Shown here: positions 17,536-64,000 of the stretch, in pieces | Position numbering within the stretch: the first letter of the stretch is position 1 | How the letters are laid out: each line of letters begins with the position of its first letter | Assembly: GCA_038204725.1 (NCBI GenBank) | Contig: JBBRCQ010000002.1 | Location: 50,846 to 114,845 of the forward strand | Length of the DNA: 64,000 nucleotides | Reading direction: 5' to 3' | DNA from: Bacteroidales bacterium | Lineage (GTDB): Bacteria > Bacteroidota > Bacteroidia > Bacteroidales > JACABE01 | The notes under the pieces: generated by a model | The model's input: the letters and a program-made list of their open reading frames with translations, nothing else | What the model was told of the DNA's origin: nothing | The model's database searches: none | Program-made: the position numbers and the translations under genes

Positions 17536-17562
17536 AATTTAGAAAATTATCTATAAATATAA

Positions 17563-17590
17563 CACTTCGACTTTGCTTAGTGTTCAGTGA
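17563..17590. repeat. Single copy of the CACTTCGACT-N2-GCT-N-AGTG dispersed motif
   Basis: CACTTCGACTTTGCTTAGTGTTCAGTGA. Related to the 24-mer at 59323-59418 and to 63295-63315. Confidence 0.7.
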
Positions 17591-22467: not shown

Positions 22468-22788
22468 GATATTTCCAGCTTTTCGGAAGGAGACATTCAT
22501 GTATATCCAAATCCTGTGCAGGATTAGCTGAATGTACAGTTCAAAGGTACTGTCACTGCAGATGGCTGCAGCTATCAATTGTATGATGGAGAAGGCAGGC
22601 TTTTTTCAAGTAATGGAAGTATGCAAATGCTCACAAAAGTAAATATGCAACCTGCTAAAAAAGGGGTTTACTATTTAGTAGTATTGGCTAAAGATGGGAA
22701 TGAGAATGTATTGGAAAGTGGTGATGCAGTAAATGGCCTATCCCCCTTGCCCCCTTTCCAAAAGAAAGGGGGTAAGAGTTCCTCCTGA
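22468..22788 (+). pseudogene. Relic T9SS C-terminal sorting domain with an in-frame TAG (22525-22527)
   Basis: Reads DISSFSEGDIHVYPNPVQD*LNVQFKGTVTADGCSYQLYDGEGRLF...KKGVYYLVVLAKDG. There is no N-terminal body upstream. Confidence 0.6.
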
Positions 22789-23031
22789 ATGGAATATAAT
22801 TTTTCCAAAGGAAATAGATAATAATAGTTGTTTTCTTAAACAATGGCCGTTTCGGTGCTTACATCTTTACCTGTATGATAGCAGGTAGAACTAAGCCTAT
22901 CCCCCTTGCACCTTTCCAAAAGAAAGGGGGTAAGAGTTCCTCCTGAATGGAATATAATTTTCCCAAAGGAAATAGATAAGGATAGTTGTTTTCTTAAACA
23001 ATAGCAGTTTCGGTGCTTACATCTTTACCGG
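22737..23031. repeat. Tandem direct duplication, 159-bp period (copy A 22737-22873, copy B 22896-23031)
   Basis: The copies are near-identical over about 137 nt. Each includes the hairpin CCCCCTTTC-CAAAA-GAAAGGGGG and the last 12 codons of the minus-strand gene 22994..23749. Confidence 0.9.
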
Positions 23032-23749
23032 TTTGCCGGCGTGTAGAGCGGGCTTTGAGCTGGGTTTTGTAATAAAGGATCAGATCATTCAATTCATTGG
23101 CCATGGTGGAATAATCAAGTTCTTCATATTCGTTAGCACAAAATTCGATGGCATCGAAAAAGGAAAAGACGGCTTTGTCGGTTATAATACGTATGCTGCG
23201 TGAATCAATTTTTTCTGTGGTTCCATTTTCACCGGTACGCTGTAAAAACAGTTTGTCAAATTCCGTATTAACGATAGAAAGCTGATCGAACCATAACTTT
23301 AGATTTAATCCTTCCACTGCAGTTTTTACCTCGGGTTTTGCATCATAATCCTTCAGGAAATCGGTTATACGTTTGGTTTCTGAATTGTAGTTGGCCGATG
23401 CTATATCACGGCCATGAATGTCGAGAAAATGATTTAATACTTTAACATGTGGAACAATGGAAGGCAGACTTAGTTTTTCCATCGTTTTAACCTGAGCTGA
23501 AATGGCATTAAACAATGTGTCGCGTTCATTGTCCAGTTCCAGCAATTGATTGCTGATGACATTGCTCATTTCATGTGCTTTTATTTTTTCCAGCACTGGA
23601 AGTTTAAGGGTGATACCCTGAAACGACTTTGTTAAATGCAATTCGGATGTGTCGTATTTCTTTACGATCCCGACAATCTGGTTCACAAACATTGTATATT
23701 CGCTGTTCCAGAGTGTGTTTATTGATAAACGAATAATTTTTATTTTCAT
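22994..23749 (-). CDS. Hypothetical all-alpha protein (Bacteroidota-restricted family, DUF6261-like by recollection)
   Basis: 251 aa with no catalytic motifs. The helical heptad-like sequence has conserved-looking LDNERDTLF and NYNSETKRI segments. Confidence 0.5.
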   Translation of the reverse strand: MKIKIIRLSINTLWNSEYTMFVNQIVGIVKKYDTSELHLTKSFQGITLKLPVLEKIKAHEMSNVISNQLLELDNERDTLFNAISAQVKTMEKLSLPSIVPHVKVLNHFLDIHGRDIASANYNSETKRITDFLKDYDAKPEVKTAVEGLNLKLWFDQLSIVNTEFDKLFLQRTGENGTTEKIDSRSIRIITDKAVFSFFDAIEFCANEYEELDYSTMANELNDLILYYKTQLKARSTRRQTGKDVSTETAIV

Positions 23750-23980: not shown

Positions 23981-24247
23981 ACAAACTGAATCTGTTTTGA
24001 GCTAAACACGTGATGGAAAAGTCAAACTGAATCCGTTTTGAGCTAAACACTTGATGGAAAAGTCAAACTGAAACTGTTTTGAGCTAAACACGTGATGGAA
24101 ATGTCAAACTGAATCTGTTTTGAGCTAAACACGTGATGGAAAAGTCAAACTGAATCTGTTTTGAGCTAAACACTTGATGGAAATGTCAAACTGAATCTGT
24201 TTTGAGCTAAACACGTGATAGAAAAGGCAAACTGAATCTGTTTTTTT
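23981..24247. repeat. 41-bp tandem repeat x6.5 (TCAAACTGAATCTGTTTTGAGCTAAACACGTGATGGAAAAG)
   Basis: Units start at 23981, 24022, 24063, 24104, 24145, 24186 and 24227 (partial). Variation is confined to a few positions. CACGTG is present in units 1, 3, 4 and 6; CACTTG in units 2 and 5. Confidence 0.95.
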
Positions 24248-24367
24248 AACAAAAGTGATAGTCTCACTCGCAGTGAGGCTATCACAGAGCTACTTAATTG
24301 CAGTGAAGCTGTCACTGAGAGAAATATTACTTTTAAGGATTTAAGAATGAAAATGCAAATCTATTTT

Positions 24368-26903: not shown

Positions 26904-26940
26904 TATGTTAATCATTCTCTGTACTTTTGATTATCTTTGG

Positions 26941-26964
26941 ACTTCCGACTTCCGACTTCCGACT
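26941..26964. repeat. Heptamer array ACTTCCG x3.4
   Basis: Direct reading. Lies 12 nt from the stop of the minus-strand gene 26976..27425. Confidence 0.9.
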
Positions 26965-30500: not shown

Positions 30501-30569
30501 TGGTTATTTGTTAATTGTTAATTGTTAGTGGTAATTTGGGATTAGGTTAATAAGTCCGAAGTCCGAAGT
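30501..30569. repeat. Phased heptamers TGGTTAT TTGTTAA TTGTTAA TTGTTAG TGGTAAT ... (30501-30549), then GTCCGAA x2.3 (30554-30569)
   Basis: Direct reading. The array begins 10 nt upstream of the folD start and reads AACAATT/AACCAAT in the sense orientation. Confidence 0.85.
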
Positions 30570-30616
30570 AAAAAATACTTTTGTCATAAAAGAAGTAGAA
30601 GTACAGTCATTATTTA

Positions 30617-30646
30617 CTGATCACTGATCACTGTTCACTGATAACT
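30617..30646. repeat. Heptamer array CTGATCA CTGATCA CTGTTCA CTGATAA
   Basis: Direct reading. Lies 4 nt from the ffh stop and reads AGTGAAC/AGTGATC in the sense orientation. Confidence 0.9.
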
Positions 30647-36263: not shown

Positions 36264-36338
36264 ATAAATTGAATTTTTCAGGCAAAAATAGGAAATTTTA
36301 TTGATATAGCGTTAAAGAGATTGAGTTTTTAGTGATTA

Positions 36339-36377
36339 GGTTAATGGGTTATTGGGTTACTGAGCTTTTTACTCAGT
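36339..36377. repeat. Mosaic modules A (GGTTAAT GGGTTAT TGGGTTA) and B (hairpin ACTGAG-N7-CTCAGT)
   Basis: Direct reading. The counterpart in inverted orientation is at 63387-63415. Confidence 0.85.
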
Positions 36378-36420
36378 CACGAGCTGCAATTTCTTACGAA
36401 GTAAGGTTTCTGAGTGAGAT

Positions 36421-36537
36421 CGACGCTAAGCGACAGCTCAGTCCCGAGCCACAATTTCTCGACGCTAAGCGACAGCTTAGTCCCGAGCCACAATTTCTCG
36501 ACGCTAAGCGACAGCTTAGTCCCGAGCTACAATTTCT
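36421..36537. repeat. Mosaic module C: 39-nt unit x3 head-to-tail (CGACGCTAAGCGACAGCTYAGTCCCGAGCYACAATTTCT)
   Basis: Units at 36421, 36460 and 36499, with a partial copy at 36378-36403. Each contains the hairpin CTAAGC-N4-GCTTAG. Confidence 0.95.
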
Positions 36538-36550
36538 TACGAAGTATGAG

Positions 36551-36636
36551 TTAGAAATTGTTATTCGGGAAGTTAGAAATTGTTATTCGGGAAGTTAGAA
36601 ATTGTTATTCGGGAAGTTAGAAATTGTTATTCGGGA
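36551..36636. repeat. Mosaic module D: 22-nt unit x4 (TTAGAAATTGTTATTCGGGAAG)
   Basis: Units at 36551, 36573, 36595 and 36617. They abut with no spacers. Confidence 0.95.
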
Positions 36637-36684
36637 TTGAGTTATTTTAGTCTATTAGGCTATTAATAACTGATAACTATTTAG

Positions 36685-36747
36685 CTGTTCACTATTCACT
36701 ATTCACTATTCACTTTTCACTTTTCGCTGTTCACTGTTCACTATTCG
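36685..36747. repeat. Mosaic module E: nine phased heptamers (CTGTTCA/CTATTCA/CTTTTCA...)
   Basis: Direct reading. The array ends 4 nt from the flippase stop codon at 36752 and reads AGTGAAY in the sense orientation. Confidence 0.95.
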
Positions 36748-36751
36748 CCTA

Positions 36752-38206
36752 TCATTTCGATTTATTTTGAATGAGTGTAAGCAGCGATTTGAAATTTAAT
36801 AATTTTAGGAATGAAGCATAAACAATAGATAAAAATACCATCCCAATAAAGTTATACATCCATTTAGTTTCAATAAAATGTTTTGAAAAAATATTGATAA
36901 ATACTACACCGATAGCAAAAGCAAGTATTGAAATTAAAAAACGATAATCTACTTTGAATTTAAATACTTTTTGGGCAATGATTACCTGAATAATTGCACT
37001 CAGAAATTGTGTGATGATGCTTGAATAAGCTGATCCAACAGCTTCTAATCGTGGGATTAAAATAAAATTAAGCGAAATATTCAACAGCATTCCTGTAGCA
37101 GCTATAAAATTCAATTCTTTAAGATTTCCGTTTGCAGTGAGCAATGTTCCAAATACATAAGTAGTTGAAACTGCAATAAATCCCATCATCAGCCATTTAA
37201 AAACAGCTGCGGATTCTTCAACATGACTGGTATATAACAATCCCATAATTTCCATGCTGTAAAAAAAAGAACCGATGGCTACTACCAATGCTAATGTAAT
37301 AAGGAGTTTGTATGATAATTTTACAATATGCACAATCTCTTCTCCGTTTTTAAGCATTTTTGAAAACAATGGAAGCAAAAGCACGGCAAAAAGATATGCT
37401 ATCATATTGGTAGCATCCAGCAAACGATAGGAAGAAGCATAAATTCCAGCTTGTTCGTCACCTTTTGTATTGGGTAACAGCCTTTCTAGCATTACTGAAT
37501 CGATACGGTTGTAGAATGTCATCAACAAAGCCAGGATAGCAAAAGGAAAGCTTTGTTTTATAATCATTATAAAAAATGGTCGATTCCAATTGAGGCGGGT
37601 AAAAGCAGATTTTCGTTTGACAACAATAAATGCAATAATTGCAGTTATCAGATAAGCAGCAGTTTGTGCATATACAAACCATTCTATCTGGAAAGGACCT
37701 GAAATAACATTGCCCCATATCAAGATTCCACAAAATATAATCATTAGCGTTCTGTCCAATACCGAGACAATGCTATCGGTTTTAAACAGCAATAACCCTG
37801 AGATATTGCTTCTTAAGTACAAAACAAAAGAAATTAAAAACTGGTTGAATATCATCCAGCCCAATATATATAACTGATGGTTGCTATATCCAACCAACAG
37901 ACCAAAACTGAGCGTTAATACAGCAAAAACGAAGGCTAACATTAACTTAAGAATCAATATACCCGAAAAGTGTTTGTTGAGCAAATGATTGTTTTGGGCT
38001 ATGTTTTTGTTGTTGAAATTGGTAATGCCAAAGTCTAATAAAATATTGAAAAGAAAAGAAAAATTAAAGATTGCAAAATAAAACCCATAATCAGCAGCAC
38101 CTACCATATTTTGGACAGATCTGTCAATCCCTAAAATCCAAAATGGTTTGATTAAAAGATTTAAAGCTAACAGGAAGATAAGATTGGTAAGAAATTTTCG
38201 CTGCAT
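36752..38206 (-). CDS. Polysaccharide flippase (MOP/Wzx-like)
   Basis: 484 aa with about 12-14 TM segments, in glycan-locus context. Confidence 0.65.
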   Translation of the reverse strand: MQRKFLTNLIFLLALNLLIKPFWILGIDRSVQNMVGAADYGFYFAIFNFSFLFNILLDFGITNFNNKNIAQNNHLLNKHFSGILILKLMLAFVFAVLTLSFGLLVGYSNHQLYILGWMIFNQFLISFVLYLRSNISGLLLFKTDSIVSVLDRTLMIIFCGILIWGNVISGPFQIEWFVYAQTAAYLITAIIAFIVVKRKSAFTRLNWNRPFFIMIIKQSFPFAILALLMTFYNRIDSVMLERLLPNTKGDEQAGIYASSYRLLDATNMIAYLFAVLLLPLFSKMLKNGEEIVHIVKLSYKLLITLALVVAIGSFFYSMEIMGLLYTSHVEESAAVFKWLMMGFIAVSTTYVFGTLLTANGNLKELNFIAATGMLLNISLNFILIPRLEAVGSAYSSIITQFLSAIIQVIIAQKVFKFKVDYRFLISILAFAIGVVFINIFSKHFIETKWMYNFIGMVFLSIVYASFLKLLNFKSLLTLIQNKSK

Positions 38207-40291: not shown

Positions 40292-40417
40292 TAAGTCGGA
40301 AGTCGGAAGTCGGAAGTCGGAAGTCCGAAGTCGGAAGTCGGAAGTCCGAAGATTGAAGATTGAAGATTGAAGATTGAAGATTGAAGATTGAAGATTGAAG
40401 ATTGAAGATTGAAGATT
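40292..40417. repeat. 18 phased heptamers: 8 x GAAGTC(G/C), then 10 x GAAGATT
   Basis: Direct reading. The GAAGATT copies start at 40348, 40355 ... 40411. Confidence 0.97.
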
Positions 40418-40459
40418 GAAAAAGACCAATTACCAATAATATAATAACTAAAATATAGA

Positions 40460-42468: not shown

Positions 42469-42741
42469 ATGAATTTCAATAGCATCTTGTTGAATGGCAA
42501 AAGTATCCGGTTGAATGTCAAAAGCATCCGTATGAGTAGCAAAAGCTTATTAACGAATTAAAAAACCAACCGGATGAATAGCAAAAGTATTCGGGTGAGT
42601 GATAAAACCATCCAGATGAATTGCAAAAGCATACTGACGAATGATAAAACCAACCGGACGAATTGCAAATGCATCTGAATAAATACCAAAAGCATTCCCG
42701 TGAATGGCAATACTGTTTCATTGAATTGCTGTAAAGGATTT
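42469..42741. repeat. Degenerate 21-nt tandem repeat, about 13 units (consensus RTGAATNGCAAAAGCATCCGG)
   Basis: Units were phased by eye from 42469. Stops occur in all frames. Confidence 0.8.
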
Positions 42742-43018: not shown

Positions 43019-43702
43019 ATGAAAAAGGTTTTATTACAAAAATTTAGGATGTATGGCAGTCTAAGAAATGTTTTAACATCCAATGATCTTATCTGGATCA
43101 GTTCTTTGCCATTAAAACAGAAGGTTGAAGAATTTTATGCTTATATGGAAAGTATTGAGAAAAAAGATCATGGTCGGAAAAGTTCAAAGAGTTTTACAAA
43201 AGAAAAAACTCAGGTGTTTGAAAAGATGCTGGATGCCACTCTAATTGTATGTAGTGCTGGAGCTGCTTATGCAGGGGTAATGAACGACGAAAAATTAAAA
43301 GAAGTATTTAACTTTACAAAAAGTTCTTTGAAATTCGGTTACGAAGAAGACGTACAGGAACGTTGCCGGAAAATTGGTGAGGATGCAGCATTAATAGCTG
43401 ATAAGCTTGTTGACTATAATATTTCGAAGGCACAGCTTGATGAACTAAATATAGCTGTAGTAGATTTCTATAAATTAATGGATGTACCCGGTAATGTTAG
43501 GGATAAAAGCAGAGATTTAAATCAGGAAATGATAGCTTTGTTTGATAAATGTGATAAATTACTGAATGAAATCATAGACAAAATGATGCAGACTTATAAA
43601 AACAACCATCCTGATTTTTTTCTGGAATATACCAATGCAAGGCATATAGGGGGATGGAGTAAGAAAAAGAAAGATGAAGGGGAAGAAAAGATTGTATCAT
43701 AG
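43019..43702 (+). CDS. Hypothetical helical protein
   Basis: 227 aa, no recognisable motif. Lys/Glu-rich tail. Confidence 0.5.
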   Translation: MKKVLLQKFRMYGSLRNVLTSNDLIWISSLPLKQKVEEFYAYMESIEKKDHGRKSSKSFTKEKTQVFEKMLDATLIVCSAGAAYAGVMNDEKLKEVFNFTKSSLKFGYEEDVQERCRKIGEDAALIADKLVDYNISKAQLDELNIAVVDFYKLMDVPGNVRDKSRDLNQEMIALFDKCDKLLNEIIDKMMQTYKNNHPDFFLEYTNARHIGGWSKKKKDEGEEKIVS

Positions 43703-43932
43703 GCGGATTGCTGCTTCATTTATTTAAAAAGGTGTAATGTTTGGTAGGGCATTGCATCTTTTTTTGCAAGAATTTGGTGTTTTGTATACTTAGCGATTTA
43801 ATTCGTATCATGATGTACTTTAAAAACTTTATGAACTTTAAAAAATGTTGCATTTTGTTAGCAAATAAAGAAAAGAATGTCTAATATTAAAAAGGTATTT
43901 ATATAAGAAAAATAGAATTTAAAGAATAAAAA

Positions 43933-44697
43933 ATGTCCTACAATCCCAACCGCCATCATCGCCGAAGCATCCGCCTGAAAGGATATGATTATTCGCAGAC
44001 GGGGATGTATTTTATTACAATTTGTTGCCATAACCATAACTATCGTTTTGGGAAAATCGAGAAAGGGAAAATGAAACTGAATAATTATGGTGAAATTGCC
44101 GGAATAGAATGGTTTTGTTTACAGGAAAGGTTTAGTAATATACGATTAGATGCGTTTGTTGTAATGCCTAATCATATTCATTGTATTATCATTATCAAAA
44201 AAAATAAATATACGGGGGCGGGGTTTACCCCCGCCAATACCCTAACCCCAACGTATAATTCCGTAGGGGCGGGGCTTGCCCCCGCCCTAATAGGACAACC
44301 CGCAAATCAAAATTCAGGGATCAACACCGGTCAGATAATCAACCAATATCAATTGGAAGATAAAAACGAAAAGGGCGATCGTAAAGATCGCCCCAACGAC
44401 GAATCAGAAGGGCTAGACGCAGAGGGCGACCGTAAAGGTCGCCCTGACGAACCAATGGACGAAAGGGAAGAAGAAAAGAAGGTGACCATTGGCGCAATCA
44501 TTGGAGCATATAAGTCTTTGGTGTTTAATAATTGTCTGAAATCAGCCAAAGAAAATAATCTGTATTTAGGTAAGTTCTGGCAAAGAGATTTTTTTGAAAA
44601 TATTGTACGCAATGAAGCAGCTTATAAGAAAATAACTGACTATATTATTCATAATCCTGAAAGATGGGAAGATGATAAATTTTATACTAAAGATTAA
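43933..44697 (+). CDS. REP-associated tyrosine transposase (RAYT; IS200-like Y1 HUH family) with about 85-codon internal insertion
   Basis: 254 aa. N-terminal HRRSIRLKGYDYSQTGMYFITICC, HUH motif VMPNHIHCII, WQRDFFENIVRNE, and a catalytic-Tyr helix ITDYIIHNPERW. Confidence 0.8.
   Translation: MSYNPNRHHRRSIRLKGYDYSQTGMYFITICCHNHNYRFGKIEKGKMKLNNYGEIAGIEWFCLQERFSNIRLDAFVVMPNHIHCIIIIKKNKYTGAGFTPANTLTPTYNSVGAGLAPALIGQPANQNSGINTGQIINQYQLEDKNEKGDRKDRPNDESEGLDAEGDRKGRPDEPMDEREEEKKVTIGAIIGAYKSLVFNNCLKSAKENNLYLGKFWQRDFFENIVRNEAAYKKITDYIIHNPERWEDDKFYTKD
44217..44444. repeat. Four GC-rich perfect stem-loops inside the RAYT CDS (44217-44235, 44267-44287, 44373-44393, 44424-44444)
   Basis: GGCGGGG/CCCCGCC; GGGCGGGG/CCCCGCCC (preceded by GTAG at 44263-44266); GGGCGATC/GATCGCCC; GGGCGACC/GGTCGCCC. 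Confidence 0.95.
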
Positions 44698-44700
44698 TTT

Positions 44701-44817
44701 ATGAAATTTACTGATGAATCTCTCGAACTTGCCGTAATCGAATTGTTTGAAATGGAACAAATAGAAACTGCCGGAGATCATCCCGCAACAATACATCACT
44801 CATTTCTTTGTGAATAA
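44701..44817 (+). pseudogene. 38-codon fragment resembling the N-terminus of a type I restriction enzyme R subunit (HsdR)
   Basis: MKFTDESLELAVIELFEMEQIETAGDHPATIHHSFLCE*. The first roughly 20 residues resemble HsdR N-termini (M-x-F/L-T/N-E..LE.A.IELF). The ORF then truncates. Confidence 0.35.
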
Positions 44818-44867
44818 AAAACCCATTGCAATGCGGTTCACATTGGAAAGAATTTAGTAAATATTAT

Positions 44868-45734
44868 TTAAATCCTCTCCAGCACTTTTCCCACCAATTC
44901 TCTTACCGGTTTTTTGTAATCCTGACTGAATTGCTTGGAAACACGGTTGGCAATCAATACACAAATGGTAAGGGTTTCGTGTCCCAGCATAGCGCCTAAA
45001 CCATATAAAGCAGAAGTTTCCATTTCCAGGTTACATATTCTATGATTGTTGTAACGGAATGTTTCCAGTTTATCGTTGATGTCGGGATAGGCGAGTTCTA
45101 AACGTATTTGCCTGCCTTGTGGTCCGTAAAAACCAGGTGCAGTTGCTGTTATTCCTTTATTGAAATCAATTCCTATTTTATCCATTAGTTTTTGAGAAGC
45201 TTTTACAACATAGGGTGTAGGCAGATTTTTACCCCATTGCGTATGTTTGATAAAGGCTGCTGTCATATCATGATCATTAACATCATTGGATGCTTTATAG
45301 AAATGCAACATGCCGTCTAATCCCAGACCATATTCAGACATCATAAATGAATCCACCTCCAGGTCGCCTTGCAAAGCTCCGGAAGTGCCCAGTCTAATGA
45401 TATTTAAGCTAGTGTGTTTGTCTTTTGGCTCCCGCTTTATAAGGTCTACATTTACTAAAGCATCCAGTTCGTTCATCACGATATCAATGTTATCGGGTCC
45501 CATGCCGGTTGAGACAACGCTGATGCGTTTATTGTTGAAATAACCTGTATGTGTACACAATTCGCGATTGAGCACTTTAAATTCAATAGAATCAAACAAT
45601 GCTGATATTTCGGGTACCCGACCGGGGTCACCCACAACGATAATATTTTCAGCTAAATTTTCCGGATGAAGCTTTAGGTGATAGATGCTACCATCGGGAC
45701 TGATAATTAATTCAGATTCTTTTATTTTTGTCAT
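44868..45734 (-). CDS. Nucleoside phosphorylase (PNP/UDP family 1, uridine-phosphorylase-like)
   Basis: 288 aa with IVVGDPGRV, VSTGMGPDNIDIVMNEL, RLGTSGAL and EMETSALY motifs. Confidence 0.75.
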   Translation of the reverse strand: MTKIKESELIISPDGSIYHLKLHPENLAENIIVVGDPGRVPEISALFDSIEFKVLNRELCTHTGYFNNKRISVVSTGMGPDNIDIVMNELDALVNVDLIKREPKDKHTSLNIIRLGTSGALQGDLEVDSFMMSEYGLGLDGMLHFYKASNDVNDHDMTAAFIKHTQWGKNLPTPYVVKASQKLMDKIGIDFNKGITATAPGFYGPQGRQIRLELAYPDINDKLETFRYNNHRICNLEMETSALYGLGAMLGHETLTICVLIANRVSKQFSQDYKKPVRELVGKVLERI

Positions 45735-53080: not shown

Positions 53081-53100
53081 GGGTGTTGGTTGTTGATAAA

Positions 53101-53156
53101 TGGTTAATGGTTAATGGTTATCAAGACGGAAGACTGAAGTCGGAAGACCGAAGACA
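53101..53156. repeat. Eight phased heptamers: TGGTTAA x2, TGGTTAT, then CAAGACG GAAGACT GAAGTCG GAAGACC GAAGACA
   Basis: Direct reading. Starts 20 nt upstream of the moaC start and reads TAACCAT x3 in the sense orientation. Confidence 0.95.
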
Positions 53157-53191
53157 TTTAACTACGGACACGTGGTATTGGTTTTAGGTTT

Positions 53192-53224
53192 TTCGAAATT
53201 CGTAATTTGTAATTCGTAATTTTT
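53192..53224. repeat. Heptamer array TTCGAAA TTCGTAA TTTGTAA TTCGTAA abutting the moaA stop codon
   Basis: Direct reading. Confidence 0.9.
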
Positions 53225-59286: not shown

Positions 59287-59288
59287 GA

Positions 59289-59320
59289 AAATTAAAAATT
59301 AAAAATTAAAAATTAAAAAG
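59289..59320. repeat. Heptamer array AAAATTA x4.5, starting 2 nt upstream of the holA start
   Basis: Direct reading. Confidence 0.9.
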
Positions 59321-59322
59321 TA

Positions 59323-59418
59323 GCACTTCGACTATGCTCAGTGACCGCACTTCGACTATGCTCAGTGACCGCACTTCGACTATGCTCAGTGACCGCACTT
59401 CGACTATGCTCAGTGGCC
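59323..59418. repeat. 24-nt tandem repeat x4 (GCACTTCGACTATGCTCAGTGACC)
   Basis: Units at 59323, 59347, 59371 and 59395 (the last has G for A). They abut with no spacers. Confidence 0.97.
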
Positions 59419-59459
59419 GGATATTTTGTCTTTGATCTTCCGTCTCAATAATCCGGCAA

Positions 59460-62653: not shown

Positions 62654-63100
62654 ATGATTCCGCTTAATTTCCCATCATTTCCATTTAAAATTAGAAAAAC
62701 ACAGAAAGGTGAAGAGATTTTTGATATAATCCGGAAGAAATATGTTGCATTTACTGAAGAGGAATGGGTAAGGCAGCATTGTATTGCCTATCTGATCAGT
62801 GAAAAAAAATATCCTGCATCACTTATGGCAGTAGAAAAAGGACTTAGCGTAAACGGACTTAAGAAAAGAACTGATATTGTTACTTTTACAAAGGATGGAA
62901 ACCCTAAACTGATTGTTGAATGTAAAGCTCCACATATTGAGATTACGAATGATACATTTGATCAGATTGCTCGTTACAACATGACGTTGAAAGTTAATTA
63001 TCTATTGGTTACCAATGGATTGCAACATTTTTGCTGTGTTATTGATCATCAGGAAGGCAGTTACAGATTTTTGGAAGAAGTGCCTGAGTATGGTCAGTGA
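62654..63100 (+). CDS. Stand-alone type I restriction enzyme HsdR N-terminal-domain-like (HSDR_N_2) protein
   Basis: 148 aa with LNFPSFPFKIRKTQKGEEIFDIIRKKYVAFTEEEWVRQH...RTDIVTF...LIVECKAP, a PD-(D/E)xK-like core. The family is common in Bacteroidota. Confidence 0.7.
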   Translation: MIPLNFPSFPFKIRKTQKGEEIFDIIRKKYVAFTEEEWVRQHCIAYLISEKKYPASLMAVEKGLSVNGLKKRTDIVTFTKDGNPKLIVECKAPHIEITNDTFDQIARYNMTLKVNYLLVTNGLQHFCCVIDHQEGSYRFLEEVPEYGQ

Positions 63101-63150
63101 AGAGTGAAGAGTGAAGAGTGAAGAGTGAATAGAGAATAGTGAATAGTGAA
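63094..63150. repeat. Heptamer array (AGAGTGA x4, ATAGAGA, ATAGTGA x2) that includes the TGA stop of the upstream gene
   Basis: Direct reading. The stop at 63098-63100 is in phase with the array. Confidence 0.95.
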
Positions 63151-63210
63151 TTTATTTATCCCGACGGGTACGAAGTTCCCGACGGGTTAAATAAGAAGTA
63201 ATCAATTATT

Positions 63211-63245
63211 AGTGAACAGTGAATAGTGAATAGTGAACAGTGAAT
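63211..63245. repeat. Heptamer array AGTGAAC AGTGAAT AGTGAAT AGTGAAC AGTGAAT
   Basis: Direct reading. It is the reverse complement of module E at 36685-36747. Confidence 0.95.
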
Positions 63246-63270
63246 AATAACTATTAACCATTAAATCAAT

Positions 63271-63415
63271 CCCGAATAACAATTTCTAACTCATGCTTCG
63301 ACTCCGCTCAGCAACAACTTCGTAAGAAATTGTAAATCGGGACTAAGCTATCGCTTAGCATACTTCGTAAGAAATTGTAGCTCGGGACTGAGCAAAAGCT
63401 CAGTAACCATTAACC
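63271..63415. repeat. Mosaic modules D (63271-63290), CTTCGACT motif (63295-63315), C x2 (63318-63393), B hairpin (63387-63404) and A (63405-63415), inverted relative to 36339-36636
   Basis: Direct comparison of the reverse complement with 36339-36640. Confidence 0.9.
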
Positions 63416-63430
63416 AAAAACAAAACAAAG

Positions 63431-64000
63431 ATGAAAGCAATGATATTTGCAGCTGGTATTGGATCGCGATTGAGACCGCTTACCAATGATGTACCCAAAG
63501 CTCTGATTCAGTTTAATGGAGAACCATTGATTGCAGGAGTTATAAAAAAACTTGTTAATGCAGGCGTTACAGAAATTGTGGTCAATTTACATCACTTTGC
63601 CAATGAATTACGCGATTATCTGAACGGTAATAAATGGAATGCTGATATTTATTTTTCGGACGAAAGTCGATTTTTATTGGATACAGGAGGTGGTTTAAAA
63701 AAAGCGGCTTCATTCTTTAACGACGGCAAGCCATTTTTTGCTTACAACGTTGATATTTTATCTAATATTGACCTTGTGAAATTGTATCAACAACACCTCG
63801 AAAACAATGTTGCTGCAACATTGGCTGTAAGAAACCGAAATAGTTCCCGTTTTTTGCTTTTTGATCATGAGAATTATTTATGTGGATGGGAAAATATAAT
63901 CAGTAACGAGTTACGACTTGTAAAAGGTCGAAGAAAGAACTTGCATTCACTGGCATTTAGCGGGATTCAGGTAATTGATCCTGTAGTTATTGAACAAATG
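63431..64000 (+). CDS. Sugar-phosphate nucleotidyltransferase (MurU/mannose-1-P guanylyltransferase-like); 3' end outside the window
   Basis: Not in the track because it runs off the window. It reads MKAMIFAAGIGSRLRPLTNDVPKALIQFNGEPLI..., the classic G-x-G-x-R-L NTP_transferase N-terminus. The frame is open to 64000. Confidence 0.8.
   Translation, partial: MKAMIFAAGIGSRLRPLTNDVPKALIQFNGEPLIAGVIKKLVNAGVTEIVVNLHHFANELRDYLNGNKWNADIYFSDESRFLLDTGGGLKKAASFFNDGKPFFAYNVDILSNIDLVKLYQQHLENNVAATLAVRNRNSSRFLLFDHENYLCGWENIISNELRLVKGRRKNLHSLAFSGIQVIDPVVIEQM

Follow-up and report, generated by a model that had tools for sequence, protein, structure and literature searches.

The DNA analysed here, referred to as the window, is a stretch of 64,000 nucleotides (nt) from a Bacteroidales bacterium (contig JBBRCQ010000002.1 of assembly GCA_038204725.1), which is AT-rich (33% GC) and has a gene content of the Bacteroidota type. 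Our subject is the 330-nt spacer at 63101-63430, hereafter locus 2, between the gene for an HsdR_N_2-domain protein and that for a nucleotidyltransferase. The entire spacer is filled by a mosaic of repetitive DNA, composed of heptamer arrays, a palindromic miniature element, and a hairpin module nested within the latter. The genes and modules are as follows:

62654-63100, plus strand: upstream gene, HsdR_N_2-domain protein of 148 amino acids (PF13588, 140 bits), with its TGA stop at 63098-63100
63096-63150, plus strand: heptamer array A, (AGTGAAG/AGTGAAT) x7.9, in sense orientation right after the stop (Tandem Repeats Finder, TRF, score 82)
63152-63194, no strand assigned: module X, a 43-nt near-palindrome with two copies of TCCCGACGGGT around ACGAAGT (85% complementary), which splits the AGTGAAN array
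63211-63244, plus strand: heptamer array A', (AGTGAAC/AGTGAAT) x4.9 (TRF)
63248-63260, plus strand: left direct-repeat copy TAACTATTAACCA, within the degenerate (TAACCAT)n array that holds the D-C block
63270-63291, plus strand: module D, a single 22-nt unit TCCCGAATAACAATTTCTAACT, of which 63270-63287 form the 5' arm of the element
63295-63316, plus strand: 22-nt insert GCTTCGACTCCGCTCAGCAACA in the D-C loop, not found in the other two copies of the element described below (locus 1 and L011)
63317-63361, plus strand: C unit 1, 45 nt, with leader ACTTCGTA, 3' arm AGAAATTGTAAATCGGGA (63325-63342), and hairpin CTAAGC-TATC-GCTTAG (63343-63358)
63362-63404, plus strand: C unit 2 or hairpin B, with arm AGAAATTGTAGCTCGGGA (63370-63387) and hairpin ACTGAGC-AAAA-GCTCAGT (63387-63404)
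63404-63430, plus strand: G-poor leader TAACCATTAACCAAAAACAAAACAAAG up to the downstream ATG, containing the right copy of the flanking direct repeat
63431-64000, plus strand: downstream gene, nucleotidyltransferase (PF00483), running past the window end

Read 5' to 3', the spacer thus consists of array A, module X, array A', a TAACCAT-type half, D, the 22-nt insert, two C units, and the leader. The right direct-repeat copy lies at 63404-63416 (TAACCATTAACCA at 63404), and two (TAACCAT)-type halves bracket the D-C block. Module X folds more stably than its shuffles (z = -3.8), and in its ACGAAGT the C-unit leader ACTTCGT recurs as the reverse complement. Homologs of the upstream protein are 147-160 amino acids long. 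Searches of Rfam 15 with the mosaic returned no matches at gathering scores and only noise (E > 0.4) in permissive mode, and a small-ORF (open reading frame) reading was dropped, the mosaic holding no convincing ORF. The hairpins were also considered as intrinsic terminators, a reading that was rejected when no terminator-like site or tail was found in the mosaic.

The first-pass annotation had described this region as the second copy of a module mosaic, which our analysis confirms: locus 1 (36358-36746) lies on the opposite strand and, seen from its co-directional flanking genes, repeats the modules in identical order. Its modules are:

36676-36746, minus strand: (AGTGAAN)n array, beginning 5 nt past the stop of the flippase gene 36752-38206 (TRF)
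36549-36636, minus strand: module D x4, a perfect 22-nt tandem array (TRF)
36358-36545, minus strand: five C units, namely one of the 45-nt type and three of the 39-nt type, followed by a spacer and a B-type copy with ACTGAG-N7-CTCAGT

Copy numbers accordingly stand at four for the 5' arm and five for the 3' unit in locus 1, and at two for the 3' arm and hairpin in locus 2. Counting both orientations, the window holds 11 copies of the 18-mer AGAAATTGTNNNTCGGGA, all of them within the two mosaics (0.2 occurrences in shuffles), and the hairpin CTNAGC-N4-GCTNAG is found five times against none expected, with loops TATC, TGTC, and AAAA. That the small hairpins keep their stems while their loops differ between copies, as had been proposed, is borne out as a matter of sequence. 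A D/C-type arm was found nowhere in the window outside the two mosaics, so no autonomous element with the same ends is visible there.

Complementarity between D and C, as claimed in the earlier annotation, holds to the letter: D (63271-63287) pairs with C unit 1 (63325-63341) at 15 of 17 positions, and with C unit 2 (63370-63386) at 14 of 17 plus one G·T pair. Each C unit consists of an 18-nt arm and a small hairpin, and the core of the element is an AT-rich unit of ~67 nt, made up of an arm TCCCGA-ATA-ACAATTTCT, a 15-nt loop, an arm AGAAATTGT-NNN-TCGGGA, and a hairpin of 6 bp with a 4-nt loop. In the predicted fold, TCCCGA/TCGGGA pair as an outer stem of 6 bp and ACAATTTCT/AGAAATTGT as an inner stem of 9 bp, the two being separated by a 3x3 internal loop and the small hairpin following directly; the variable NNN, including the GTAG to which the first-pass annotation had drawn attention, falls in the internal loop of this stem. 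In locus 1, the four D copies are predicted to pair concentrically with successive C copies. The arms are 15 nt apart in the compact form and 37 nt apart in locus 2, where it is the 22-nt insert in the loop of the element that makes the pairing long-range. Predicted folds are far more stable than those of shuffled controls, with RNA of locus 2 at -42.6 kcal/mol versus -23.5 in shuffles (z = -6.0; z = -5.1 as DNA) and z-scores of -6.6 for locus 1 and -5.9 for L011, which supports the suggestion that D and C can form a long stem-loop. With 18-nt terminal inverted repeats (15-16 of 18 positions matching), small size, and no coding content, the unit has structural features of a miniature inverted-repeat transposable element (MITE). 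The locus 2 block is flanked by TAACYATTAACCA direct repeats, a 13-nt direct repeat standing near both of its ends, and periodic arrays would hide a target-site duplication of unit length.

The third copy of the element, on contig L011 of an uncultured Bacteroidales metagenome-assembled genome (MAG), is a compact 67-nt D-loop-C-hairpin unit (TCCCGAATAACAATTTCTAACTCATACTTCGTAAGAAATTGTAACTCGGGACTAAGCTAACGCTAAG) whose D-C junction is identical to that of locus 1. It lies inside an octamer array (ATCACCAA)n, which begins at the upstream stop codon, resumes past the unit, and stops 11 nt short of the next ATG. This compact copy embedded in an array shows that D-loop-C-hairpin is a discrete unit; each of its three known copies breaks into a simple-sequence array. 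No target-site duplication beyond the array period was seen in L011, where periodic flanks would hide one. Between the D/C copy and the downstream start lie 27 nt at locus 2, compared with 35 nt in L011. The L011 copy was the only genuine match among 25 loci found by scanning genome contigs with AGAAATTGTNNNTCGGGACT, the other 24 being chance or coding matches. Scans of metagenomes gave no match to the D pattern and one chance match to the C pattern, in the GC-rich coding contig L029; scans of viral contigs gave none to either pattern, and a blastn search against plasmids and phages found no match. Contigs of the same organism from the Logan assembly of SRR19962012 end within the AGTGAAN arrays of both mosaics (L001:3711-3739 and L027:3379-3431). 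Repeat mosaics of this kind break short-read assemblies, leaving such elements under-sampled in MAG collections, and just one further D/C copy was found for this reason.

Comparison with relatives places both mosaics among recent gains. The locus 2 spacer, 330 nt in the window, is 11 nt in the syntenic contig L028 from the Joint Genome Institute (JGI; 82% identity in HsdR_N) and 71 nt, with no module, in L039-L041 (78% identity), and L037 (82% identity) has no mosaic in it either. Similarly, the locus 1 spacer measures 137, 126, and 92 nt in L030/31, L032, and L033 (flippase 87-90% identical) versus 488 nt in the window, with which these relatives have in common only the region adjoining the downstream start. 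Orthologous sites therefore differ in presence and absence of the repeats, as is characteristic of repeats recently gained, and orthologous spacers without mosaic imply lineage-specific gains rather than conserved regulatory elements. A CTATTTTTGC box at ~36283-36290 (minus strand), ~20 nt upstream of the ATG of a Wzz-like gene, is kept in the equivalents in L030, L032, and L033; we take it to resemble the Bacteroidetes TAnnTTTG -7 promoter element. The locus 1 mosaic is inserted upstream of this promoter-like box, which has been retained. The tandem-repeat load is 26 bases per kb in the window and 55 in L011 (5.7 kb), compared with 2-17 in the relatives.

With at least three head-to-tail 7-nt copies in intergenic DNA, the arrays of the window mosaics are heptamer simple-sequence repeats. 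Within the window, 1508 of the 1684 tandem-repeat bases (90%) are intergenic, and all six divergent spacers are free of heptamer arrays, which stand in co-directional or convergent ones. The upstream TGA stop does lie inside array A, in the first, degenerate unit TCAGTGA, as had been stated; the further statement that the array forms the 3' end of the coding sequence comes down to 5 nt of coding array. With a TGA in each unit and a unit length, 7, that shares no factor with 3, an AGTGAAN array closes any frame within three units, and a stop codon inside it is trivial, being expected of a heptamer array that contains TGA. TAACTGA arrays behave likewise, 13 of them overlapping upstream stop codons (MacGregor 2015, PMC4679880), and intergenic heptamer arrays overlapping stop codons are known in Cyanobacteria, Beggiatoaceae, and Bacteroidetes (PMC4679880).

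Arrays of the AGTGAAN type follow a stop codon in sense orientation in three of three cases, and concatenated heptamer arrays also occupy other spacers (40293-40420, 26940-26964, 30503-30646, 53099-53221, 59288-59319, and 2556-2604), with unit types AAGTCGG, GAAGATT, GACTTCC, GTTAATT, AAGTCCG, ACTGATC, AATGGTT, AAGACGG, TTCGTAA, AAAATTA, and TAACTAA. These usually begin no more than ~12 nt past the upstream stop codon and end no more than ~20 nt before the next start. On L028, the relative without the mosaic, (TAAGTTT)x8 begins exactly at the TAA stop of a PDDEXK_1 gene (L028:14052-14111), with the stop codon in the first unit as at locus 2.

The insert in the D-C loop belongs to a second kind of small repeat. 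Locus 1 and L011 read ...TTTCTAACTCAT|ACTTCGTAAG... at the junction where locus 2 has GCTTCGACTCCGCTCAGCAACA between the halves, and the insert forms a hairpin at 63294-63313 with stem TGCT/AGCA and a conserved loop, TCGACnnnGCTC (also given as TCGACTCCGCTC). The 22/24-nt module has ACTTCG in common with the C leader. A tandem array of the same module is present elsewhere in the window:

59323-59419, plus strand: 24-nt tandem array GCACTTCGACTATGCTCAGTGACC x4, conserved-loop hairpin module with stem CACT/AGTG (TRF)

A single copy with stem AACACT/AGTGTT lies at 17561-17584. The conserved 12-nt loop is TCGACnnnGCT(C/T), on stems that differ among copies. An IMG/VR viral contig contains the 20-nt core of the module without a mismatch (L036:2066-2090, stem ACACT/AGTGT), and a second hairpin ~300 nt away (~1750-1770) carries, on the same displayed strand, the loop in reverse-complement form, GAGCTTGTCGA. 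A literature search for the sequence of the conserved-loop hairpin found nothing relevant.

Taken together, the best explanation, to which we assign a probability of roughly 0.6, is that lineage-specific repetitive DNA, of three kinds nested in one another, colonised the locus 2 spacer. The heptamer arrays, (AGTGAAN)n past the stop and degenerate (TAACCAT)n before the next start, would grow and shrink by replication slippage, and the ~67-nt AT-rich palindromic element would have inserted into the (TAACCAT)n array. Such an element may spread as non-autonomous DNA, in the manner of MITEs, of hairpin-forming doublets of repetitive extragenic palindromic (REP) sequences (REPINs), or of small dispersed repeats (SDRs), with a preference for simple-sequence arrays. 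Its arms and hairpin units were probably amplified by slippage or unequal recombination, and in locus 2 the 22-nt hairpin module would have entered the loop of the element. Any effect on mRNA, the hairpins being co-transcribed in an operon, would be a by-product. Judging from three loci and the empty orthologous sites, the most likely course of events was that small non-autonomous hairpin elements inserted into slippage-prone arrays and that slippage or unequal exchange came afterwards.

Several points weigh against this explanation. The D/C element is known from three loci only (two in the window and one in L011), from which copy number, target preference, and mobility are extrapolated, and the second genome, that of L011, could be a close relative of the window organism. 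A target-site duplication would be hidden by the periodic flanks, and neither a parent transposon nor a responsible enzyme came to light. Relative to the genes around them, all three copies share one polarity, and each stands a short way before the next start, which could reflect selection on a transcribed structure. The same could be said of the low variation in the stem of the C arm, with 2/105 differences at stem positions versus 5/21 in the internal loop (Fisher p = 0.0014, for copies that are not independent), a pattern that constraint on a DNA palindrome would explain as well as constraint on RNA.

A more far-reaching version, which we regard as possible but doubtful, holds that the D-loop-C-hairpin unit and the TCGACnnnGCTY-loop module are undescribed families of very small Bacteroidales mobile elements that home into simple-sequence arrays and are moved by a hairpin-recognising enzyme other than the pairing of REP sequences with REP-associated tyrosine transposases (RAYTs). 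Arrays perhaps expose single-stranded or slipped DNA, and amplification of the arms would produce nested "Russian-doll" cruciforms.

The mosaic could instead be a functional cis-acting RNA element of the polycistronic transcript that shields the upstream cistron from 3' exonucleases, directs processing, or alters translation of the downstream gene, with the heptamers as protein-binding sites, a role put forward for TAACTGA repeats. In addition to the equal polarity of the three copies near a downstream start, the very stable folds, and the restrained variation of the stems, such a role is suggested by position, as locus 2 lies within an operon in relatives (11-nt spacer in L028) and must be transcribed through. 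REPs stabilise mRNA (PMC6006769), and a post-transcriptional role has been proposed for heptamer (TAACTGA) arrays (MacGregor 2015, PMC4679880). However, the mosaic is missing from every orthologous spacer examined and is thus not required for these genes, its copy numbers differ wildly between loci, Rfam matches and a terminator-like tail are lacking, and the locus 1 copy precedes a conserved promoter box that belongs to the downstream gene itself. The antisense strand also folds better than the sense strand (-52.5 versus -42.6 kcal/mol in locus 2, -112 versus -93.6 in locus 1), which marks the palindromy as a property of the DNA. Covariation of the small hairpin was limited to one covarying pair (A-T to G-C, with a G-T intermediate) in an underpowered set of seven copies and did not exceed that in shuffles. 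Given these predicted folds and the orthologous spacers that lack the mosaic, a dedicated sense-strand RNA structure is not favoured, and we consider an RNA function of the mosaic unlikely.

Somewhat less likely still is the proposal that the C and B hairpins, with their upstream GTAG, are REP-like substrates of a RAYT encoded in the same window, and that the D/C pair is a REPIN that it mobilises. The gene concerned is:

43933-44697, plus strand: RAYT-family gene (TnpA_Y1 subclass 2.4), to which no link from the mosaic was found

On its motifs and database matches, this gene encodes a genuine RAYT-family protein of subclass 2.4 of Quentin et al. 2018. The product matches PDB 4ER8 (TnpA-REP of E. 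coli), the alignment covering both the HUH motif (PNHIHCI) and WQRDFFE...DYIIHNP, and thousands of its homologs are named RayT by their source databases. Scores of 59 bits for NCBIfam REP_Tyr_transpos (cut-off 80) and 22.2 for Pfam Y1_Tnp (cut-off 23) miss the curated cut-offs of these hidden Markov models, presumably owing to a variable insert. Subclass 2.4 is recognised by an HuH motif NH[IFV]H, WQ, a Y motif YIxNNP, and a variable insertion between HuH and Y with in-frame REPs; here we find NHIH, FWQ, DYIIHNP (YIINNP in relatives), and an insert of ~95 amino acids between HuH and Tyr. In-frame REP insertions within the gene are a unique feature of this subclass, whose REPs are canonical, GC-footed, and tagged with GT[AG]G (PMC6006769).

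Four GC-rich palindromes lie in frame inside this ORF (44215-44445) and nowhere else in the window: GGGGCGGGGTTTACCCCCGCC encodes GAGFTPA, which is conserved in homologs, its inverted partner GTAG+GGGGCGGGGCTTGCCCCCGCCC is found at 44263-44287, and two GGGCGAYCGTAAAGRTCGCCC palindromes encode GDRKDRP and GDRKGRP. Behind the gene is a 38-codon remnant of an hsdR N-terminus (44701-44817; 58% identity over 19 amino acids). In another MAG (L034:665-4668), a 54%-identical RAYT homolog begins 26 nt past the preceding gene and overlaps a full-length hsdR of 1070 amino acids by 4 nt. The lineage of this RAYT may therefore reside in type I restriction-modification (R-M) loci rather than in REPtrons, and a search for terminal inverted repeats around the gene (the TIRtron idea) gave only weak AT-rich matches.

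In favour of a RAYT connection are the presence of a genuine RAYT-family gene, the REPIN-like doublet hairpin that D and C form, the location of the repeats downstream of genes in co-directional spacers, as with REPs (PMC3733652), and the lack of an obvious target-site duplication in L011, as for Y1 transposition, which periodic flanks would likewise hide. The hairpins themselves speak against it. By the rules of Quentin et al. 2018 (PMC6006769), a REP has GT[AG]G 0-2 nt 5' of the foot, a paired stem of 7-20 bp, a loop of 2-5 nt, and at least three G/C among the first four basal bases. The supposedly conserved GTAG varies among copies (GTAA at 63332, GTAG, GTGG twice, GCAG in the copy at 36377-36394, and GTAA in L011) and stands 6-7 nt from the stem, GTAG at 63377-63380 being 6 nt from the 7-bp form of hairpin B and 7 nt from its 6-bp form. 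The C hairpins have 6 bp and a foot of CTAA (one G/C), hairpin B has 7 bp and a foot of ACTG (two G/C), and loops are 4-7 nt long. Nor are GTAG-plus-hairpin sites enriched: the window has five GTAG-N5-8-hairpin sites, while shuffles average 2.3 and reach as many as 7. The D/C pair does fold as one hairpin, as the inverted doublet of a REPIN would, yet its arms are not REPs. REPtron copies lie within ~1 kb of their cognate RAYT, whereas modules C, B, and D are absent from 43500-45100, and the nearest copy (36358-36636) is ~7.3 kb away. Finally, the REPs cognate to subclass 2.4 are GC-rich and GT[AG]G-footed, such palindromes being found in frame in this very ORF, and the 54%-identical homolog within a type I R-M operon has no flanking spacer for REPs. 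The REP-like reading of the first-pass annotation is therefore not upheld, and a link between the mosaic and the RAYT gene is, as far as sequence can tell, unsupported. GTAG near a hairpin and a RAYT gene in one window do not amount to evidence of a REP system; the subclass of the RAYT and its own REPs should be checked.

A purely local origin, by slippage, duplication, and inversion of spacer DNA in place with no dispersal of units, would account for the tandem amplification within each locus and for modules interrelated by partial duplication or inversion (module X and the C leader; ACTTCG in the 22/24-nt module), but is very improbable, being already contradicted by an identical 40-nt D-loop-C junction (…ACAATTTCTAACTCATACTTCGTAAGAAATTGT…) at two unlinked loci of the window and at a third locus in another assembly, with different, unrelated flanks that also argue against segmental duplication, and by the conserved-loop module at three unlinked sites of the window and in the IMG/VR contig.

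Repeats of several known kinds resemble the colonising DNA that we favour. REPs in the bacterial interspersed mosaic elements (BIMEs) of E. coli and REPINs in Pseudomonas are likewise short extragenic palindromic units with inverted doublets that fold into a long hairpin. They too form tandem ordered clusters and mosaics with other short motifs, 3' of genes in co-directional or convergent spacers, and differ in presence and absence among related genomes (PMC3116915, PMC3733652); REPIN clusters and tandem REP arrays have both been described (PMC3116915). Unlike these, the mosaic lacks GT[AG]G 0-2 nt from the foot, has AT-rich stems of 6-7 bp rather than GC-rich ones of 7-20 bp and 18-nt arms that are not themselves palindromes, and does not adjoin a RAYT gene. 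MITEs and the palindrome-associated elements derived from IS200/IS605 have in common with it terminal inverted repeats, small size, no coding capacity, and empty orthologous sites, whereas no target-site duplication is recognisable in the periodic flanks of the mosaic, which would hide one, the window contains no autonomous element with matching ends, and tandem amplification of arms, as in D/C, is unusual for MITEs.

The heptamer arrays resemble the short tandemly repeated repetitive (STRR) sequences of cyanobacteria, reportedly described by Mazel et al. in 1990, as well as long simple sequence repeats (LSSRs) and TAACTGA arrays. Head-to-tail 7-nt units, an almost wholly intergenic location, and a patchy distribution over lineages including Bacteroidetes are common to all. 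In the known arrays, too, the unit has a stop in each frame, so that arrays adjoin or run over the stop codon upstream, and they end near downstream starts. In contrast, the units in the window are not TAACTGA or CCCCAGT but AGTGAAN, TAACCAT, AAGTCGG, GAAGATT, and others; a single spacer joins several unit types end to end, and palindromic modules interrupt the arrays. For LSSRs we refer to Mrazek 2007 to the extent that it is cited in PMC4679880.

Nesting of small hairpin modules is reportedly a trait of the SDRs of Nostoc, attributed to Elhai et al. 2008 (Genome Res 18:1484): these are modules of ~20-27 nt, some forming hairpins, nested in other repeats at precise sites, and said to be abundant in one genome and missing in close relatives. 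They differ in phylum and sequence, and mobility in the present case is suggested by three or four sites only. The mosaic comes closest to BIME/REPIN clusters, to the heptamer arrays of cyanobacteria and Bacteroidetes, and to Nostoc SDRs. Genomic filler of this kind is already known, and by the REP rules given above the mosaic does not belong to the REP family.

Other repeats in the window are of different make. The divergent spacer in front of a gene for a protein of 822 amino acids at 24347 holds, at 23982-24244, 6.4 copies (93% matches) of a 41-nt unit; this array is unrelated to the mosaic modules and is followed by the hairpins GATAGTCTCACTCGCAGTGAGGCTATC (imperfect stem of ~10 bp) and, shorter, CAGTGAAGCTGTCACTG (5-bp stem). 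A 158-nt unit with CCCCCTTTCCAAAAGAAAGGGGG hairpins is repeated 1.9 times (94%) at 22736-23032, in a convergent spacer of 748 nt. A degenerate array with a period of 21 nt (also 42 and 84 nt), ATGAATAGCAAAAGCATCCGG-like and with 61-81% matches, lies at 42469-42710 in a 600-nt spacer and overlaps a minus-strand ORF of 100 codons whose reality is doubtful.

Some uncultured Bacteroidota thus carry dense intergenic repeat mosaics of a kind best known from cyanobacteria and enterobacteria. If it is true that the elements target simple-sequence arrays, they would offer a tractable model for site choice by very small DNA parasites.

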